Source: Candidatus Enterousia sp.
GTDB taxonomy: Bacteria; Pseudomonadota; Alphaproteobacteria; Rs-D84
DNA: 64,000 bases
NCBI GenBank assembly: GCA_045635825.1
Contig: JAZTWM010000015.1
Location: forward strand, 6,786 to 70,785
Direction: 5' to 3'
The notes beneath the pieces are model-generated. The model was not told the origin of the DNA, ran no database searches, and worked only from the letters and a program-made list of their open reading frames with translations. Shown in pieces: positions 4,154-11,655 of the stretch. The first letter of the stretch is position 1. Each line of letters begins with the position of its first letter. Position numbers and translations under genes: made by a program.

Positions 4154-5404
4154 CTATCTCTTTTGCTTGTACGCCAAGACATATGGCACAAATTTTTCGG
4201 CGTGCGTATCACCCAACCAGACACGTGGAATCAAAATCGCATTCCCCATACCGGCCGCCATCTTGTCGATAACTTCGCCATTTTTGGCATTTCTTAACTC
4301 TGGTAATTTCACCGTCACAGAATCCATCGTCCCTGGCAGAATAAATGTGATTTCATCACCCGCGCGTGTTTCGTTACGCAATTCAAATGTAATATTTTCA
4401 TCGTCCACTGCAGTAATTACACCGGCTGCATGAAAGTTTGATGTACTGCGTGTTGTTTCGTAATTATGTGCATCTGCCGTCACAGGTCCATCAAAAAATG
4501 CCGTTGTATAACCACGTGTTTCCAATCGGTTCAGGTTTTCCATAAATGGTGTGGGATCAAAGTTTTCAGGGTCACGTGCATAGGTATCTAATGCACAACG
4601 ATATGCATGCACCACAGAACCAACATAATATTCACTGCGATTGCGACCTTCGATTTTTAAAGAATCAGGATTAGCAGATACAACATCCGCCAGACGTGGC
4701 ATCAGGCATAAATCTTTGGAGTTCATAATGTATGCACCACGATCATCTTCGGTAATTGGCATTTCAACACCGCTGTCTTTTTCACGCAATACGACATCAT
4801 ATTTCCAACGACACAATTGTGCACACGCACCACGATTTGCTGGACGGCCAGTTATAAAATTAGACAACAGGCAACGACCTGAATAAGACATACACATTGC
4901 ACCATGAACAAAGATTTCCAACCCAACATCTGGGCATTCGGCACGAATGGTTTTAAATTCACTGTGTGATACTTCACGTGCCAGAACACATAATTTCGCG
5001 CCTGCATTCTGCCAAAACTTTACGGTTTTCGCCGAGCAGATATTCGCCTGGGTTGAAATGTGAATTGGCATTTCTGGAAAGTTTTCACGCACCCACATTA
5101 CAATACCAGGATCCGACACAATCAGGGCATCAGGGCCCAGGTAGCGTATAACATCGGCTACACGTGGCATATGTGCATATTCGTGATCGTGTGCAAACAG
5201 GTTAAATGCCAGATAAACCTTTTTACCGGCCGCATGCGCCAATTCGATACCTTGCTTAACCCCTTCGACATCGATTTTTGCGCGTGCACGCATTGAAAAC
5301 CCAGGCAAACCCGCATAAATTGCATCTGCACCATATAAAATGGCGGTTTTAAAGGCATCCAACGTACCCGCCGGTGCCAAAAGTTCAGGTAATTTCGTAT
5401 TCAT
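4154..5404 (-). CDS. Peptidase U32 family protein (YegQ/TrhP-like)
   Basis: Conserved U32 core including the E-x-F-x-x-G-A-M-C-x-x-x-S-G-R-C motif (IFVHGAMCMSYSGRCLL). Start trimmed to MNTK (5404), which has an AGGGGG RBS. The longer listed ORF would overlap the tRNA. Confidence 0.8.
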   Translation of the reverse strand: MNTKLPELLAPAGTLDAFKTAILYGADAIYAGLPGFSMRARAKIDVEGVKQGIELAHAAGKKVYLAFNLFAHDHEYAHMPRVADVIRYLGPDALIVSDPGIVMWVRENFPEMPIHISTQANICSAKTVKFWQNAGAKLCVLAREVSHSEFKTIRAECPDVGLEIFVHGAMCMSYSGRCLLSNFITGRPANRGACAQLCRWKYDVVLREKDSGVEMPITEDDRGAYIMNSKDLCLMPRLADVVSANPDSLKIEGRNRSEYYVGSVVHAYRCALDTYARDPENFDPTPFMENLNRLETRGYTTAFFDGPVTADAHNYETTRSTSNFHAAGVITAVDDENITFELRNETRAGDEITFILPGTMDSVTVKLPELRNAKNGEVIDKMAAGMGNAILIPRVWLGDTHAEKFVPYVLAYKQKR

Positions 5405-5497
5405 ACCCCCTATTTTGCCCCAAATAAATCCAAAGGCAAGAAATTTTATGATTTTTTTACTTGCGTTTGTTTTCCAGATATGTATAATGGGTGGCAT

Positions 5498-5573
5498 GCC
5501 GGTTTAGCTCAGCTGGTAGAGCGGCTGATTTGTAATCAGTAGGTCGTTGGTTCAAGTCCGACAACCGGCACCA
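5498..5573 (+). tRNA. tRNA-Thr (anticodon UGU)
   Basis: 76-nt cloverleaf folded by hand. Acceptor GCCGGTT/AACCGGC, D-arm GCTCAGCTGGTAGAGC, anticodon loop TTTGTAA, T-arm GTTGGTTCAAGTCCGAC, encoded CCA. Followed by a hairpin terminator at 5577-5606. Confidence 0.85.
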
Positions 5574-5636
5574 GTTTAGAAACGCACCATTTGGTGCGTT
5601 TTTTCTTTGGATTTCTTTGACTTTTTGATTTTTTGT
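5525..5636 (+). repeat. attL: 112-bp direct repeat (3' two-thirds of tRNA-Thr plus 63 bp downstream)
   Basis: Identical to 11355-11466 over 112 bp (compared by eye, base by base). Confidence 0.85.
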
Positions 5637-5782
5637 TGGGGGCACAAACCAGAAATCGCACAAGCAGAAAAATCGAAAATATAAAAGCCCTTTTTGATGC
5701 TTATGATGTACAATATTCTTCGCTTGAAATAGTGCTATATTAGCTCTTGAAAATATAAACATAAGAATATATCGCTAGTTTA

Positions 5783-6124
5783 TCATTCCCCATCTGGGAT
5801 TTCGGGGCTGGATACTTCGGTAATATCATCAAATGGGATTTTGGTTTTGACTATGGTGATGTATCGGTATTCGGGGTCTATGCGGGTGACCATGCCCGTT
5901 ATGGTGTCATAGGCATCGGTCCGATAAAATCGCACCGTTATCATCATGCCTTTTTTAATCAGCCCAAGTTTCCGTGACAGTCGTTCTGCGGCATCGCCAA
6001 TCAATTCCCGTCTGGGCTCCACCACCCGATTTTTAGCCAGCACCATCGCATAGTACCCACGCAGGGCCGCAAAAGGCATAAACTGTTTTGCACGTGCGGT
6101 ATTATCAGCCATTGTGTCCCCCAA
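5783..6124 (-). CDS. YolD-like protein (accessory partner of UmuC-type polymerases)
   Basis: 113 aa. Overlaps the polymerase gene by 20 nt, which suggests an operon. Sequence pattern resembles the YolD family. Confidence 0.6.
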   Translation of the reverse strand: MGDTMADNTARAKQFMPFAALRGYYAMVLAKNRVVEPRRELIGDAAERLSRKLGLIKKGMMITVRFYRTDAYDTITGMVTRIDPEYRYITIVKTKIPFDDITEVSSPEIPDGE

Positions 6125-7367
6125 CCAAAGTATTACGTTTGCGACCGGTGGACCTCTCGTGATAATTTATGCCACGCAGGACGGCATTCTTGCCAAACTT
6201 GCCCTTGATATCCAGCAATGCGTGTTGCAGTTTGCTTTCGCGTTCGTCCGCCCTTGTGTCCGCAAATAAATCCAGTTGCAGATGCACCGTATCCGCATCA
6301 ACCAGGTTCCCTAGCCCCACCGTCAATTTATGTATCGGCGTGCGTTTGTCGGTCGTTTCCCTATACAATCGCATAAACTCCGCCACCAACGATTTATAGG
6401 ACGATGTGTGCGCTGGCAATTTACGACTGCCCCCAGTTGGGCGTCGCACATCACGTGAATACCCCACCGACAGAGATATTTCATCCGCCACCAGATTCTT
6501 TTCCACCAATTCCAAGACCAGGTTATCGACCATTTCCTGCATCACAATCTGTGCGTCGTCAAAGTTATAGTCTTCGAACAGAATCTGGCCGTTGGACAGG
6601 GAATGGGATTTCGCCTGATAATTGTGAATGTCGGCAATCGTGCACGGTTCAACACCATTGGCATGGTCAATCAGGTATTCCGCGTTTGTGCCGAACTCAC
6701 GATACAGGGTTTCGGGCGGCAACTGCGTCACCCCATACAGGTCATAAACACCGTATTTTTCCAGTCGCCGTGCAATACCCGCCCCGATGTTCCAGATATC
6801 TGTTATCGGCCGATGGTGCCACAGGTGCTGGCGGAACGATTCCGCATCCAGGTATCCGATATGGTCGGGGACTTTCTTGGCCGTGATGTCCAGCGCAACC
6901 TTAGCCAAAAACAAGTTCGTGCCAATGCCAGCGGTGGCGCATATGCCCGTCTCGGCCCGCACCGCATCCATCAGCATTATCGCCATTTCTTTGGGCGACC
7001 GTTTATACATTTTCAAGTAAGGCGTGATATCGATAAAGCATTCATCAATGGAATAGACATGGATGTCTTCGGGTGAAATATAGCGCAGATAAATCCCGTA
7101 AATCTGGGCGGATACCTCCATATACTTTTTCATGCGGGGCATGGCGGTGATGTATTCGACCCCACGCGGGATTTCAAAGACTCGACATCGGTTGCGAATC
7201 CCCAGTACCTTCATCGCCGGCGTTATCGCCAGACAGACCGACCCCCGCCCCCGTGACGGGTCCGCCACCACCAGGTTTGTTGTAAATGGGTCCAGGCCAC
7301 GGTCAACCGCTTCGACCGAGGCAAAGAAACTCTTTAAATCAATGCAAAGATAAAACCTTTCCGCCAT
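6105..7367 (-). CDS. Y-family (UmuC/DinB-type) translesion DNA polymerase
   Basis: N-terminal LCIDLKSFFASVE and SIDECFIDIT catalytic motifs. 420 aa. Local GC about 50%, versus about 30-40% for neighbours. Confidence 0.85.
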   Translation of the reverse strand: MAERFYLCIDLKSFFASVEAVDRGLDPFTTNLVVADPSRGRGSVCLAITPAMKVLGIRNRCRVFEIPRGVEYITAMPRMKKYMEVSAQIYGIYLRYISPEDIHVYSIDECFIDITPYLKMYKRSPKEMAIMLMDAVRAETGICATAGIGTNLFLAKVALDITAKKVPDHIGYLDAESFRQHLWHHRPITDIWNIGAGIARRLEKYGVYDLYGVTQLPPETLYREFGTNAEYLIDHANGVEPCTIADIHNYQAKSHSLSNGQILFEDYNFDDAQIVMQEMVDNLVLELVEKNLVADEISLSVGYSRDVRRPTGGSRKLPAHTSSYKSLVAEFMRLYRETTDKRTPIHKLTVGLGNLVDADTVHLQLDLFADTRADERESKLQHALLDIKGKFGKNAVLRGINYHERSTGRKRNTLVGGHNG

Positions 7368-7370
7368 TCC

Positions 7371-7395
7371 GTGAATCAGTATAAACCGAATTCAC
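7371..7395. promoter_or_regulatory. Palindrome GTGAAT-N13-ATTCAC immediately upstream of the polymerase start codon (candidate operator)
   Basis: 6-bp inverted arms seen directly. Position is -4 to -28 relative to the ATG at 7367. Confidence 0.3.
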
Positions 7396-7458
7396 AGGAT
7401 GTCAAAAAGGATTGTATGGATAAAGAAACCCGCCCACATGGGGCGGTTTCAAATTTTA

Positions 7459-7707
7459 TTATTTTTTCTTTTTTGTCCCCGACCTTTCTGTCGTAGAATT
7501 ATAAACAGCCCATATCAAAGCAAAAACCCAACCAAACAACGTAAATCCTAAGAATAAATTTAGAATAAAAATTGCTGTAAAATTAATGTGCTTTCTGCAT
7601 GCTGCAACAATAGAAGGCAAAAAGTAGATACCGATTAACAAAACTAGATATATCATCCCTAATAAAAATTCCATAATGTCCCTCTTTTTGTTATTTATTC
7701 TACGCAT
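7459..7707 (-). CDS. Small 2-TM membrane protein, superinfection-immunity (Imm)-like
   Basis: 82 aa. Two hydrophobic helices with the ...RKH.NF.AIFILNLFLGFTLFGWVFALIWA pattern typical of Imm_superinfect-type proteins. A hairpin terminator lies downstream. Confidence 0.55.
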   Translation of the reverse strand: MRRINNKKRDIMEFLLGMIYLVLLIGIYFLPSIVAACRKHINFTAIFILNLFLGFTLFGWVFALIWAVYNSTTERSGTKKKK

Positions 7708-8072
7708 GAATAAGAATATGTTTTTGGCATTCTGTACATGTTATTAGATATAGCGTCCACAAATACTGGTAATATACCAACCATCCAACCAATCGGGAAT
7801 ACGTCCAAGATAACTGCTGGTGTATTTAATTCACGCATAACCGTCTTTTCGGAACATGCCGAATTAGATGACTTGATGGTCAAATCATTATTTGAAAATA
7901 TAACCATATCTTGGTCTGGCTTTATCTTGTACACACCGCTATCGGCAGATACGGTTATCGTATCTTTGGAATTGTTGTACAGACGGGTTTCATGGTTGCT
8001 GCCTATACCGATTGTTCCGCATGCTGATAAAGTAAATAGAATTGATAAGATAACAAACTTTTTCATAGGCAC
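7695..8072 (-). CDS. Lipoprotein (lipobox LSAC)
   Basis: Signal peptide MKKFVILSILFTLSAC. Overlaps the imm-like gene by 13 nt. Confidence 0.55.
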   Translation of the reverse strand: MPMKKFVILSILFTLSACGTIGIGSNHETRLYNNSKDTITVSADSGVYKIKPDQDMVIFSNNDLTIKSSNSACSEKTVMRELNTPAVILDVFPIGWMVGILPVFVDAISNNMYRMPKTYSYSCVE

Positions 8073-8119
8073 TCCTTATTTTATGTCACAATAAACTTTA
8101 ATGAATAAATCCCCATAAA

Positions 8120-8506
8120 TCAATATGGTTTTTGGGATAAGACTTTTGATACAATTAAGTCAGCTGGTAATTGTGGGTGTGCCGGCAGGTCTGATACTAG
8201 CACCCAGTGCATATCATCGTGGACATGCAATTGGATTTCGCCGAGATAGGATACGATTTCGTATGTGTGCAGTTCGATTACCTTACCTGAATCTGTTGTA
8301 TGTTTTGCGATTGTAATAAGGTCGCCAACTTGCGCATCTATCCCCAATTCTTCGGTCAGTTCACGTTTCAGGCATGTTGGTCCATCTTCACCATCTTCAA
8401 ATTTACCGCCGGGATATTCCCATTCGCCAGCCAATGGCTGGTCAGCCGCCCGTCGCATCAGCAGAACTTTATCCCCATCTCTAAAAATCGCAGCAGTTAC
8501 TTTCAT
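8120..8506 (-). CDS. NUDIX hydrolase
   Basis: Canonical Nudix box G-x5-E-x7-R-E-U-x-E-E-x-G-U: GKFEDGEDGPTCLKRELTEELGI. Confidence 0.85.
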   Translation of the reverse strand: MKVTAAIFRDGDKVLLMRRAADQPLAGEWEYPGGKFEDGEDGPTCLKRELTEELGIDAQVGDLITIAKHTTDSGKVIELHTYEIVSYLGEIQLHVHDDMHWVLVSDLPAHPQLPADLIVSKVLSQKPY

Positions 8507-8514
8507 TTGTTTCC

Positions 8515-9567
8515 TTAGGCCTTGGTATAAAACGTTGTGCGACCGTTGCCGTGTTTGACCAGGTGGCCATTATCTGTCAGGTTGCGCAGGATTTTCTTTA
8601 CCGTGTCGATATTCATCCCTAAATGCTGGGCCAGTTCACCCGATGACCATTCGGCACGCACCTCAAAAGCCCCCAGGATATTTAATGCATTACGGGACAA
8701 TGCGGTATCCGTACCGCTGGCACGTTCCAGCTTGGATTCCAGATGGCGTTTTTGTTTCTGTAATGATGTGATAAAGAAATCCAACCAAGGACCATAATCA
8801 ACGCTGTCCGACCAGATTGTCTTTTGCGTGTCATGCAACGCACGATAATACATGCCTTTGCTGGCCTCTATAATCGATTCCATTGACGCATATGGCATAT
8901 ATGAATAACCGCTTTGCAGCATCAGCATCGTTGTCAATGCACGTGACATACGTCCATTTCCGTCCTTGAACGGGTGAATAGACAGGAAATGCACAATAAA
9001 CACGCCAATCACAACGATTGGATGCAAATAACGTTCTTTCAGGTTCAGATTAGTCCAGTCCAGCAATTCGCCCATCAGACGTGGCGTATCGAACGGTGTT
9101 GCCGTTTCAAATATAGACCCGATTTCATGACCGTTTGCGTCAAAAGCGGCAACACGGTTGGATGAAGTTTTATATTCGCCACGGTGGTCGATATCCTTGC
9201 TGGAATGCGACAACAGAATTTTGTGCAACTGCTTGATATAATTTTCATTCAATGGAATAACCGAATAATCATTCAAGATACGGTCGACCAAGTCGGCATA
9301 TCCGGCAACTTCTTCTTCGTCACGACTTTTGAAAGATGTTTTGTTGACGTTTTTGAACAGGGTTTCGATTTCTGCATCTGTCATCTTGTTCCCCTCGATG
9401 CGGTTGGACGAGCCGACGGATTCAATGGTTGCAACCATTCTCATGGCACGCAAGACATCCGGGCGAACCTTAATCGCACCGCTGTCCCAGTTGGCCTTAA
9501 AAACGTCCAGTTCTGAAATCTTGTTCAGCATTTCTGGCGTGATAATAATATTCTTCATATTTGGCAT
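8515..9567 (-). CDS. Fic family protein with C-terminal winged-helix domain
   Basis: Fic motif HPFKDGNGRMSRAL. N-terminal inhibitory-helix-like SNRIEG (S-x-x-x-E-G). Confidence 0.85.
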   Translation of the reverse strand: MPNMKNIIITPEMLNKISELDVFKANWDSGAIKVRPDVLRAMRMVATIESVGSSNRIEGNKMTDAEIETLFKNVNKTSFKSRDEEEVAGYADLVDRILNDYSVIPLNENYIKQLHKILLSHSSKDIDHRGEYKTSSNRVAAFDANGHEIGSIFETATPFDTPRLMGELLDWTNLNLKERYLHPIVVIGVFIVHFLSIHPFKDGNGRMSRALTTMLMLQSGYSYMPYASMESIIEASKGMYYRALHDTQKTIWSDSVDYGPWLDFFITSLQKQKRHLESKLERASGTDTALSRNALNILGAFEVRAEWSSGELAQHLGMNIDTVKKILRNLTDNGHLVKHGNGRTTFYTKA

Positions 9568-9983
9568 GTTTTTACACCTTTTTACACAATTTTACACGAT
9601 TCTGCACGAAAAGCAACGATTTTTTACATTTTTCTGGGCGGATTTAAAGCGACACTTTAGATTATCGAAAATTTGCCCACTAACCCATCCCAAAATATCC
9701 CGGCGGTTACTTTCATTTATTCAATTTATCGCTAATTATATCGCTAGTTTTTTTGTCGAAACTAGCGATATATGATTATCGCCCGGATTTTATCAAATGT
9801 ACACATTTTGTTTTCCGACTCACCCAGCAACAAAAAAACGTGTAAAAACAAACCTTTTCCAAGTGCCAAGCAATAAATTTCTGTCATAATAGAAATTTTC
9901 TGCAGTTTTACATAAAATTTCTATTAAGGCAGTTTTCTGCAGTTCCCCAGACGTATATTCATGCGTAATATCAGACCATATTT
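9568..9983. promoter_or_regulatory. Island control region with several repeat motifs
   Basis: TTTTACAC x2; inverted repeat TATATCGCTAGTTT/AAACTAGCGATATA; TTCTGCAGTT x2 spaced about 34 bp apart. AT-rich. Lies between the fic operon and int. Confidence 0.4.
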
Positions 9984-11183
9984 TTACAATGAAACCGCCT
10001 CGATATATTTCTGTGGTATATTGTTCAGCATTTCGTTTGTTGCACGTTGCATTGATTGACGGATTGGGTCTGCTGATAAATGCGCATAGATTTGCGTGGC
10101 GGCAATTGACTTGTGACCCAATGAACGGCCAATAATTTGCAGGCTAGAACCTTCCATTGCTTGATAACTGCCCATTGTATGGCGCAGGTCATGTATGCGC
10201 ATGTTTTCAATGTTGGCACGTTTCAATAACGATGCCCATGATGACTTGGGTTCCTCAAGATGTCCGCTTTTGCTGGTATCGCTTGGGAATAGCCACGGAC
10301 TGTCGCCCGCATCATTTCGCATCTGTATTAACAAATCCATTGCATGCGTTGTCAAAGGAATATTGACATCATCGCCGTTTTTAGTGTCTGCAAAACGTAC
10401 AAAGCCGTTTTCAAGGTCAATATCTGACCAGCGCAAGGCCAACATATTGCTGCGACGTTGTGCCAAAAACAGTGATAACAACACATAATTGCGAAATACG
10501 GTATTTGAATATTTCAGCGCATCAAGAAATCGCCGCAGCTCTTCCTGGGACAAATAGCGAACGCGGCTTTTTTCTTTGAATGGTTTTATGTTCTGTGCAG
10601 GATTTTCTAATCTGCGTGGATACCCCAATTCATATGCCTTGTTATACATGTGGCGCAGTAAACTAAGTGTACGGTTGGCGGTGTATAAACCACAATTGCG
10701 TTTTATCGAATTATGCAGCTGTGTAACCTCTTGCTGTGTTATGGTACGCATCTGGCGATTATGAAACGGCGCTAGATGTCTTTCAAATGTGATATTATTG
10801 TCATAAACCGTCTTAGGTTTTTTATACAGCTGCGAATGCTGGGGAAGATAAACATTCTTGTAATAGTGTCCCAAGGTCATATCGTTCAATGCGTCACGAC
10901 GTTCTGTTGCAGGGTCTTCACCATGTAACGACCGTTCTTTATATTCATGTGCACGCATACGGGCCTCGGCTATTTTTATCTGACCGACACGGGCGATTTT
11001 TACGCGACGTGGCATTCCTTGAAATTTAAGATACGCGAAGTATGTTTTTGCTCCTCCATAACTTACATGTACGCATAATCCATCCAATGACCCAGTATCA
11101 TAATATATGACTGTGCCTGTCTTTGGAACCGGCAATGCATCCAGTGTTTTATTTGTAAAGTTGATACGATTTGACTTACTCAT
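9984..11183 (-). CDS. int: Tyrosine site-specific integrase
   Basis: C-terminal catalytic region ...RIHDLRHTMGS... and ...IAATQIYAHL (R..H..R..Y). Adjacent to attR. Confidence 0.9.
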   Translation of the reverse strand: MSKSNRINFTNKTLDALPVPKTGTVIYYDTGSLDGLCVHVSYGGAKTYFAYLKFQGMPRRVKIARVGQIKIAEARMRAHEYKERSLHGEDPATERRDALNDMTLGHYYKNVYLPQHSQLYKKPKTVYDNNITFERHLAPFHNRQMRTITQQEVTQLHNSIKRNCGLYTANRTLSLLRHMYNKAYELGYPRRLENPAQNIKPFKEKSRVRYLSQEELRRFLDALKYSNTVFRNYVLLSLFLAQRRSNMLALRWSDIDLENGFVRFADTKNGDDVNIPLTTHAMDLLIQMRNDAGDSPWLFPSDTSKSGHLEEPKSSWASLLKRANIENMRIHDLRHTMGSYQAMEGSSLQIIGRSLGHKSIAATQIYAHLSADPIRQSMQRATNEMLNNIPQKYIEAVSL

Positions 11184-11354
11184 AATTCCATTTCCTTTAT
11201 GTTATTTTTTTGCTACGTATTTGCTACCGCGGGCATAAAAAAACACATAACAACGTTCATTTCCATTCAACATTAGCAAAAATCAAAACAAATGCAAGAC
11301 ATTGTTTTTACTAAAATATTCATCATCATTCATCGTTATTCATGATTAAGCAAA

Positions 11355-11466
11355 CTGATTTGTAATCAGTAGGTCGTTGGTTCAAGTCCGACAACCGGCA
11401 CCAGTTTAGAAACGCACCATTTGGTGCGTTTTTTCTTTGGATTTCTTTGACTTTTTGATTTTTTGT
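11355..11466 (+). repeat. attR: second copy of the 112-bp repeat (truncated tRNA-Thr 3' part plus terminator)
   Basis: Identical to 5525-5636. Lacks the tRNA 5' half. Confidence 0.85.
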
Positions 11467-11655
11467 GTTTAGTGGCGAAGTCATGCGGGGCGGACAGTTT
11501 TTATTTTATTCGGGGCGTGCAAACGCAACCCATTTCTGCCCCATGACTCCAAAACACCAACAACTGTGATGCAAAGTGTGATGCGATGTGGTATCTGTGT
11601 AAAAAATAACTTGATTTATTTTTGTGTCATTTTAACCTGAAAAAAGGTACGTAAA

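Follow-up and report, generated by a model that had tools for sequence, protein, structure and literature searches.

How did a block of seven genes, all read from one strand, come to lie between an intact tRNA-Thr(UGU) gene and a second, displaced copy of that gene's 3′ half? The block is found in a 64,000-nt stretch of DNA, called the window here, from contig JAZTWM010000015.1 of an uncultured alphaproteobacterium, Candidatus Enterousia sp. The answer proposed, to which we assign a probability of roughly 0.85, is that the block is a small tRNA-Thr genomic island. It would have entered by site-specific recombination catalyzed by a tyrosine integrase; it is built of modules, and its cargo has predicted roles in defence and translesion synthesis. 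In order from the intact tRNA gene, the genes are yolD-like, umuC-like, Imm_superinfect, lipoprotein, Nudix, Fic and tyrosine integrase, all on the minus strand.

The direct repeat and the empty site

The limits of the block are set by a direct repeat. A repeat search of the 64-kb window shows that the 112 nt at 5525–5636 recur with 100% identity at 11355–11466, 5830 nt from start to start; chance cannot account for an exact 112-mer repeat in 64 kb. Because ARAGORN and Rfam place the tRNA gene at 5498–5573, the repeat begins at tRNA position 28 (C28), in the 5′ strand of the anticodon stem. It spans 49 nt of the tRNA, to the CCA, and 63 nt past the CCA. The latter segment includes a terminator hairpin, AAACGCACC-ATTT-GGTGCGTTT plus a T-run, placed at 5578–5607 by a terminator scan. 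The features at the two ends are as follows.

5498–5573, plus strand: intact tRNA-Thr(UGU) (ARAGORN; Rfam tRNA, 72.8 bits)
5525–5636, plus strand: left repeat copy (attL side), with tRNA positions 28–76, the terminator hairpin and ~29 nt beyond
11355–11466, plus strand: right repeat copy (attR side), with the displaced tRNA 3′ fragment and the terminator
11467–11655, plus strand: host right flank, up to an ABC-F gene, single copy in the window

Positions 1–27 of the tRNA are host DNA, and the 3′ part lies within the repeat. The right copy has no positions 1–27; its tRNA fragment (positions 28–76, at 11355–11403 of the plus strand) is co-oriented with the intact gene. Three particulars of an earlier, sequence-only reading of this DNA are borne out: the perfect 112-bp repeats, their extent from the anticodon stem through the CCA and past the terminator, and the missing tRNA 5′ half of the second copy.

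That reading also proposed comparing related genomes for an uninterrupted tRNA-Thr gene, and such a site is found at loci L090 and L004, both from other species. There, the tRNA-Thr gene, the terminator and a homolog of the window's right flank are contiguous. An attB sequence reconstructed from the window, by joining 5440–5636 to 11467–11655, aligns across the junction, to position 315–325, with both loci (83.8% over 314 nt in L090 and 83.8% over 328 nt in L004), whereas the real attL aligns with them only to ~197, i.e., to the end of the repeat. Since these relatives hold the tRNA gene, terminator and right flank in one piece, the window, compared with them, has 5.7 kb inserted. The repeat and tRNA anatomy, the intact integrase, the attB alignment and the layout of the relatives described below thus support integration into the tRNA 3′ half, as first suggested.

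The repeat might instead have come from local duplication or from faulty assembly, with no part played by site-specific recombination, and two observations lend this some substance: att-like sequence occurs in arrays in relatives, and relatives' contigs often break at the repeat (L081 ends in the tRNA fragment, and L087–L089 end just upstream of the gene for a U32 peptidase). Such an origin is nonetheless very improbable, given that the start of the repeat coincides exactly with the anticodon stem and that the tRNA is restored by it, that an intact integrase gene lies between the copies, and that the same structure, with both ends on one contig, is found in the independent assemblies L084, L085, L095 and L096.

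The arrays themselves deserve description. In relatives, a unit of ~200 nt, made of the 3′ part of the tRNA T-arm, the terminator and ~128 nt of right flank, recurs two to three times per contig, as imperfect direct repeats, and bounds integrase-less segments of 0.6–3.9 kb (L004, L007, L090, L102, L105, L107 and L108). These units look like the scars of a second, T-stem-type integration system acting at the same tRNA. The sequence-only reading had held that its proposal would fail if relatives carried the same duplication without the intervening genes. Partial duplications around other DNA are indeed seen, but not in the same register or around the same segment. Because they are in another register and surround segments that have no integrase, they mark tRNA-Thr as a hotspot of serial integration and do not refute the island.

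Some further observations concern the flanks. The right flank (window 11467–11595) is conserved at 78–93%, and most of the relatives' copies are preceded by a tRNA-Thr fragment running from T-arm to terminator. Copies lie at 8108–8222 and 9828–10000 in L004, at 7573–7685 and 3627–3720 in L090, and also in L102, L105, L107 and L108. A degenerate right-flank pattern run on Joint Genome Institute (JGI) metagenomes returned 11 short contigs with arrays of att scars and no full tRNA. As a structured RNA, the segment 11467–11655 gave no Rfam match and a folding z-score of −0.79. In several Enterousia species (L001, L008, L009 and L010), a tRNA-Lys(UUU) rather than a tRNA-Thr gene precedes the ABC-F gene; in L003 and L006, ABC-F is preceded by C-terminal integrase fragments in opposite orientation. 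The ABC-F neighbourhood has thus been rearranged repeatedly across Enterousia. On the other side, the longest open reading frame (ORF) of the U32 peptidase (4154–5497, minus strand) reaches the tRNA gene. Its homologs are mostly of 415–420 residues, which fits a true start at an internal ATG at 5404, and the 31-codon N-terminal extension is probably spurious.

The integrase, its candidate arm sites and its relatives

The recombination proposed requires an integrase and the sites that it would bind. These are:

9984–11183, minus strand: tyrosine integrase gene, 399 aa (Pfam Phage_integrase, 95 bits; Arm-DNA-bind_3, 36.1 bits, cut-off 27)
11184–11354, no strand: integrase-side arm (P arm), guanine-plus-cytosine (GC) content 0.29, with two tandem GTAGCAAA sites
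5637–5782, no strand: island DNA adjoining attL, at the expected position of the P′ arm, GC 0.32 (motif scan, BLAST)

Pfam and a complete R-K-H-R-H/W-Y catalytic set confirm the earlier assignment of a tyrosine integrase adjoining attR: alignment to the XerA/XerC-like structure 4a8e identifies R243, K268, H331, R334, H357 and Y366. The Xer and integron models of NCBIfam all score far under their cut-offs, and the match to NCBIfam PRK09692 is insignificant. Homologs at E ≤ 1e-20 number more than 2,000; an exact-protein look-up found no record.

Integrases 51–99% identical to this one share a common layout at tRNA-Thr or tRNA-Met, in which int lies beside the displaced fragment and the defence cargo varies. 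In L084 and L085, where the integrase is 57% identical, the order is U32, tRNA-Thr, a 174-aa gene, an HTH_17 gene, small ORFs, RloB, AAA_21, int and the repeat; the repeat is an exact 54 nt, from the anticodon stem to 4 nt past the CCA. L094 and L095/L096 (integrase 51–54% identical) have the matching layout at tRNA-Met, with a Type III restriction-modification (R-M) system (L095) or only RhuM as cargo. Wherever both ends are visible, int lies toward the displaced fragment; therefore, a tRNA-distal int is a trait of the family. That the integrase is distal to the intact tRNA had been seen from the sequence alone, and this stands; the accompanying view that the orientation is an uncommon one, and so an oddity, does not, as it is the constant layout of this integrase family.

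Where the strands would be exchanged is suggested by the edges of the identity blocks. The related attR junction of L014 matches the tRNA from the first base of the anticodon loop, T32, onward, and in L095 the block starts at the 3′ edge of that loop. In the event we propose, the attP of a 5,830-bp element would have recombined with the tRNA-Thr(UGU) gene through the action of the integrase, with the 5′ edge of the identity block, in the anticodon loop, as the most likely crossover point. Because the island would have brought its own tRNA 3′ half and terminator, the tRNA gene would have been restored at attL and the original 3′ half displaced to attR.

Islands of this kind have precedents. The Islander-type islands in tRNA genes, reported by Williams in 2002, are said to include an anticodon-centred ('A') class of attP with a displaced 3′ fragment. 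Like those of the 'A' class, the present island has an intact tRNA that its own sequence has regenerated, a 3′ fragment in the same orientation at the other end, an internal tyrosine integrase and an identity block from the anticodon stem through the 3′ end, and its site is used serially, as the arrays in relatives attest. The block fits the anticodon-centred att class. One difference is the host, an uncultured Rs-D84 alphaproteobacterium with a genome of less than ~1 Mb. Another difference, this time from its own family, is the length of the block, which at 112 nt is about twice that of members with both ends visible (54 nt in L084 and ~43–64 nt in L095/L094), because the terminator and ~29 nt beyond it are duplicated too. 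P4-type islands (Arm-DNA-bind_3/DUF4102) of Enterobacteria, such as P4 at leuX and CP4-57 at ssrA, share with the present island the family of the arm-binding domain, a tRNA 3′-end target, an int beside attP and the character of a small accessory or defence island. In those examples, int follows the intact tRNA gene directly and has its orientation. Here and in the rest of the family, in contrast, int is at the far end, beside the displaced fragment and diverging from it. Taken together, the sequence features make this, it appears, a known kind of element, namely a tRNA island of the anticodon-loop type whose tyrosine integrase is heterobivalent. Of the 3919 Islander islands, 2083 have anticodon-centred attP sites with 3′ fragments, more than fall in any other class (PMC4383910).

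The second kind of site that such an integrase would bind is likely represented by GTAGCAAA. Its two copies in the P arm, at 11209–11216 and 11220–11227, are read on the minus strand, 26–45 nt upstream of the int start, and a motif scan found the pair to be the sole exact copies in the 64-kb window. An alignment of integrase-side arms shows the tandem GTAGCAAA-N3-GTAGCAAA to be invariant in the window, L081, L082, L083, L014 and L084, and around the pair the sequences of the window and L084 diverge completely. In L084/L085 and L095/L096, four copies are on the integrase side and two on the tRNA side, the latter ~70–90 nt from the tRNA end, and L094 has two on each side. We infer that the GTAGCAAA pairs are arm-type sites bound by the N-terminal domain of Int and that they overlap the int promoter region. 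The arm-binding domain would probably bridge the core site to the tandem sites upstream of int, and Int bound there would also allow int autoregulation. A different motif, ATATCGCTAGTTT, was considered as an arm-type site and rejected: its palindromic copy is 1.6 kb from attR, and relatives hold only one exact copy.

Head, tails and predicted cargo

As judged from alignments with relatives, the island is modular, with a conserved head and exchangeable tails. The head module consists of the P arm, int, the int-fic spacer, fic and nudix. Among 24 contigs carrying this integrase variant, L161–L170, which come from other metagenomes, were taken for comparison, and in these the head is 96.1% identical over 3,265 nt, a stretch that begins with the final 24 nt of nudix, takes in fic, all of the 416-bp spacer, int and the P arm, and includes the tRNA fragment. 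After it, L161–L170 have a KAP NTPase, an HNH protein and a Type I R-M system in place of the window's tail. In L082, int-fic-nudix is followed by an HNH gene, a umuC remnant, an att scar and a cyclase of the cyclic-oligonucleotide-based antiphage signalling system (CBASS) type. The L082 copy is decaying, with a frameshifted int, a umuC cut after ~41 codons and a partial att; beyond it lies a further island with the SMODS/AGS_C cyclase.

The umuC-yolD cassette also occurs in an unrelated island: L092 has a counterpart of window 5768–7418, at 89% identity, within another island at this tRNA-Thr, one that has a 343-aa integrase lacking the arm domain, a resolvase, an EcoRI-type methylase and GmrSD. 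The yolD product is 96% identical in amino acids to that of the gene downstream of umuC in L092, so the pairing is kept. Remnants of the 5′ end of umuC-yolD occur in L082, L161 and L005, and the homology with L005 reaches 7444. A mosaic of GC content accompanies the modules, as follows: 0.50–0.52 in umuC-yolD (0.52 in umuC), 0.31–0.37 in imm and the lipoprotein gene (the latter 0.37), 0.455 in fic and nudix and 0.43 in int, versus 0.41 for the window. In the present copy, the tails joined to the head would be an envelope pair (lipoprotein and Imm-type protein) and a umuC-yolD cassette with its own promoter.

Side observations bear on the history of the cassette. L005 2825–2936 equals window 7333–7444 over 112 nt at 100%, covering the terminator, the promoter and the first 35 nt of umuC. 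It comes from a different species, no polymerase gene is present, and an adjoining small ORF resembles the C-terminal winged helix-turn-helix (HTH) of Fic; the stretch is probably the deletion remnant of a similar island. In the contigs with the 96%-identical head (L161 6047–6782), a umuC gene cut short at residue 198 borders an att scar of the T-arm type that lies outside the integrase island. Breaks at att junctions have thus affected the polymerase cassette repeatedly.

A small element that carries an integrase and whose head is found in different genomic contexts might instead be an integrative mobilisable element (IME), hijacking a conjugative system for transfer, and homologs of VirB4/VirB3 do lie near the L094 and L095 islands. 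Against this identity, or that of an integrative and conjugative element, no relaxase, coupling protein, type IV secretion system or replication gene was recognised in the island with Pfam, NCBIfam and PHROG, and no oriT-like feature (origin of transfer) was recognised, an oriT not being recognisable with these tools. We consider an IME improbable.

The features of the cargo are:

9568–9983, no strand: int-fic spacer, 416 bp, with repeats, a palindrome and a nudix remnant
8515–9567, minus strand: class II Fic AMP-transferase-type gene with a C-terminal winged HTH (SoFic-like; Pfam Fic)
8120–8506, minus strand: MutT/NudG-like Nudix hydrolase gene, 128 aa, intact Nudix box (Pfam NUDIX, 62 bits)
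7695–8072, minus strand: lipoprotein gene, lipobox LSAC, overlapping the imm start by 13 nt (ORF list)
7459–7707, minus strand: gene for a small membrane protein of the superinfection-immunity type, 82 aa (Pfam Imm_superinfect, 61.8 bits)
7446–7430, minus strand: intrinsic terminator-like hairpin that ends the fic-to-imm unit, at the upstream edge of the umuC-yolD cassette
7371–7405, minus strand: umuC promoter, with TTGACA (7405–7400), a 16-nt spacer and TATACT (7383–7378) (scan, 11/12)
6105–7367, minus strand: gene for a Y-family (UmuC/DinB-like) DNA polymerase (Pfam IMS, 97 bits; IMS_C, 50 bits)
5783–6124, minus strand: yolD-like gene, sharing 20 nt with the end of the polymerase gene

The earlier gene identities (fic, nudix, lipoprotein, Imm-like, Y-family polymerase, yolD and integrase) hold on Pfam, with the lipoprotein recognised by its lipobox and yolD below its cut-off. 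The cargo had also been read as one minus-strand operon. Strand and gene set are correct, but the single operon is not: the terminator at 7446–7430 and the promoter at 7405–7378 stand between fic-to-imm and umuC-yolD, and the cargo therefore forms at least two transcription units.

The Fic protein matches PADLOC SoFic (E = 4.8e-41) over residues 40–347 of 350, with the active-site motif HPFKDGNGRMSR at 198–209 and the class II inhibitory motif SNRIEG at 54–59, in keeping with the class II patterns HPFx[D/E]GNGRxxR for the active site and [S/T]xxxE[G/N] for the N-terminal inhibitory motif. The nudix gene starts 8 nt downstream of fic, and its product matches the PADLOC defence candidate PDC-S07 (E = 1.6e-33). 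SoFic is described as an AMPylating toxin that acts by abortive infection and, in E. coli, has a small antitoxin encoded downstream (PMC12249575). The island protein resembles it in the full-length PADLOC match, the Fic motif, the N-terminal inhibitory-helix motif and the C-terminal domain. Unlike SoFic, it is followed by a gene for a 128-aa Nudix protein and not by a 47-aa AS1-type antitoxin. A general two-gene Fic-Nudix system is unlikely: no Nudix gene adjoins the Fic homologs of ~50% identity on plasmids of Rhizobiales and Burkholderia, and L009 has a 77%-identical Nudix gene beside ABC-F with no Fic. From these comparisons, the pairing appears confined to this island lineage.

To describe the int-fic spacer as a repeat-rich control region of 416 bp, as the sequence-only reading did, is fair; its tandem repeats and palindrome are conserved in L082/L083. 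Four 10-nt tandem repeats of the TTTTACAC type (TTTTACACnn three times, then TTCTGCACGA) occupy 9570–9609 and stop 2 nt short of the fic start codon, an arrangement kept in the L082/L083 alignment; a regulator could bind them as an array, or they could act in the control of translation. A perfect 13-nt palindrome, ATATCGCTAGTTT/AAACTAGCGATAT, lies at 9738–9771 and is likewise kept. A 22-nt inverted repeat (9881–9932) falls within a segment missing from L082. At 9684–9721 there is a 38-nt copy of the nudix start region 8474–8511, at 82% identity, which encodes MKVTAGIFWDG; this remnant of the nudix 5′ end is apparently left over from a former order of the genes. The 64 kb contain exactly three copies of the 11-mer ATCGCTAGTTT, all in the island (5771–5781, 9740–9750 and 9759–9769): one lies where the homology of the umuC-yolD cassette ends on its outer side, and the other two make up the spacer palindrome.

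Imm matches PHROG 1039, 'immunity to superinfection' (E = 6.9e-25), and the lipoprotein has no Pfam, PHROG or PADLOC match. The overlap of their genes suggests an envelope-level exclusion pair.

The polymerase has the catalytic acidic residues D10 and D108–E109, and its match to the NCBIfam Pol IV subfamily is under the cut-off. With its partner, it would be predicted to provide translesion synthesis. The umuC promoter is the best sigma-70-like match of the region. It is overlapped by a palindrome, GTGAAT-N13-ATTCAC (7395–7371), a candidate operator, and promoter and palindrome are kept in all copies of the cassette (L092, L082 and L005). To our knowledge, the palindrome matches no SOS-box consensus. 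Y-family polymerase cassettes of the YolD/UvrX type are carried by mobile elements, e.g., yolD-uvrX of Bacillus SPbeta. The likeness lies in a Y-family polymerase gene overlapping a small yolD-like gene on a mobile element, and the cassette's own promoter and palindromic candidate operator are likewise counted as resembling cassettes of this type. In contrast to SPbeta, the polymerase gene here comes first and yolD second, and no LexA/UmuD-type gene is present.

Phage-family matches of the integrase, the superinfection immunity of Imm and the Y-family polymerase could together point to a cryptic prophage or a phage satellite. The gene content does not accord with it, for Pfam and PHROG recognise no capsid, terminase, portal, replication or packaging gene among the seven, and the element is only 5.8 kb. 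Nor does the integrase: no relative of more than ~31% identity is found in GenBank phages or IMG/VR, which sets it apart from phage-borne integrases. A prophage or satellite is hardly credible.

For the tRNA-Thr island, the likely benefit to the host would be phage defence or exclusion (SoFic-like Fic, PDC-S07-like Nudix and Imm) together with damage tolerance and mutagenesis. It resembles integrase-associated defence islands in joining a conserved integrase module to swappable cargo: SoFic-like/Nudix/Imm in the window, a CBASS-type cyclase in L082, AAA_21 and RloB in L084, Type III R-M in L095, and KAP, HNH and Type I R-M in L161. It differs from them in that a defence role of its cargo is predicted only and in that it also carries a translesion polymerase cassette.

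Excision, host and significance

Several results weigh against the tRNA-island reading or parts of it. With regard to the site, no empty site of the same species was found, an exact-pattern attB scan of JGI metagenomes gave none, and an attP-junction pattern had no match in IMG/VR, so that no excised circle was found there; the nearest homologs of the U32 peptidase, moreover, are ~88–92% identical. If the window is from a metagenome assembly, misassembly could have occurred at a repeat of 112 nt. With regard to the cargo, all functions are predicted from profile matches only. The Fic protein departs from SoFic in falling far under the NCBIfam equivalog cut-off (47 bits versus 550), and the yolD product scores 25.0 bits with Pfam YolD, where the cut-off is 27.5. 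With regard to recombination, the P arm has two GTAGCAAA sites versus four in L084/L095, the expected P′ segment 5637–5782 has no GTAGCAAA-type site at ≤1 mismatch, and the HTH_17 excisionase-type gene (of L084, L092 and L095) has no tblastn match in the 64-kb window at E < 0.05.

The last three findings suggest a refinement rather than a different origin. Because the HTH_17 homolog, the tRNA-side GTAGCAAA sites and two of the four P-arm sites are missing, this copy may no longer excise. That is, the island would have arrived by its integrase, and both its excisionase and the arm sites on its tRNA-proximal side would later have disappeared, perhaps when umuC-yolD took the place of that end, leaving the island anchored and removable only by homologous recombination between the 112-nt repeats. 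The L084/L095 islands, with their 4 + 2 sites, set the contrast, and L082, of the same lineage, is decaying in place. No small HTH ORF is present in the island's spacers; the HTH_17 gene of L084, L085, L092, L095 and L096 lies near the tRNA-proximal end; and none of the loci that were compared with the island by BLAST contains a homolog of 5637–5767. Other evidence favours a copy that is still mobile. The integrase is full length with all catalytic residues, the identity of the repeats over 112 nt fits a recent event or ongoing homogenisation, and the 96%-identical head, found in many samples with different tails, suggests an active lineage. In addition, L094 has arm sites (2 + 2) and no HTH_17 gene, and it follows that an excisionase is not universal in this integrase family. 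An anchored island is thus quite possible, at somewhat short of even odds.

Whether anchored or mobile, the tRNA-Thr island sits in a poorly sampled lineage. Its flanking ABC-F protein is 95–97% identical to those of Candidatus Enterousia and related alphaproteobacterial metagenome-assembled genomes (MAGs) from animal and human guts, and the exact ABC-F sequence is not on record. Since neither Int nor ABC-F has an exact record and U32 identity does not exceed ~92%, the species is not closely represented in public data. Candidatus Enterousia belongs to the order Rs-D84, with genomes mostly below 1 Mb (PMC12306168).

We add a two-part proposal that, taken as a whole, is rather unlikely. Its first part is that the int-fic-nudix head would be a functional unit, in which the Nudix protein, placed as AS1 is in E. 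coli, would modulate the Fic toxin, with the tandem repeats and palindrome as control sites. Its second part is that small integrase islands of this family, with the anticodon loop of tRNA-Thr or tRNA-Met as their target, would be the main route by which the strongly reduced genomes of gut Enterousia/Rs-D84 bacteria, of less than 1 Mb, exchange defence systems and a mobile mutagenic polymerase.

The known workings of tRNA islands are unchanged by these findings. For the annotation of Enterousia MAGs, the description of the repeat should be useful because contigs often break there, and the GTAGCAAA candidate arm motif and the att core offer a starting point for integration tools in the clade. 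With respect to biology, an integration hotspot at tRNA-Thr that looks active persists in uncultured alphaproteobacteria of the gut whose genomes are very small. Through it, one integrase family moves a varied defence cargo, with SoFic-like, CBASS-type, AbiL-like and restriction-modification genes, along with a cassette for an error-prone polymerase.

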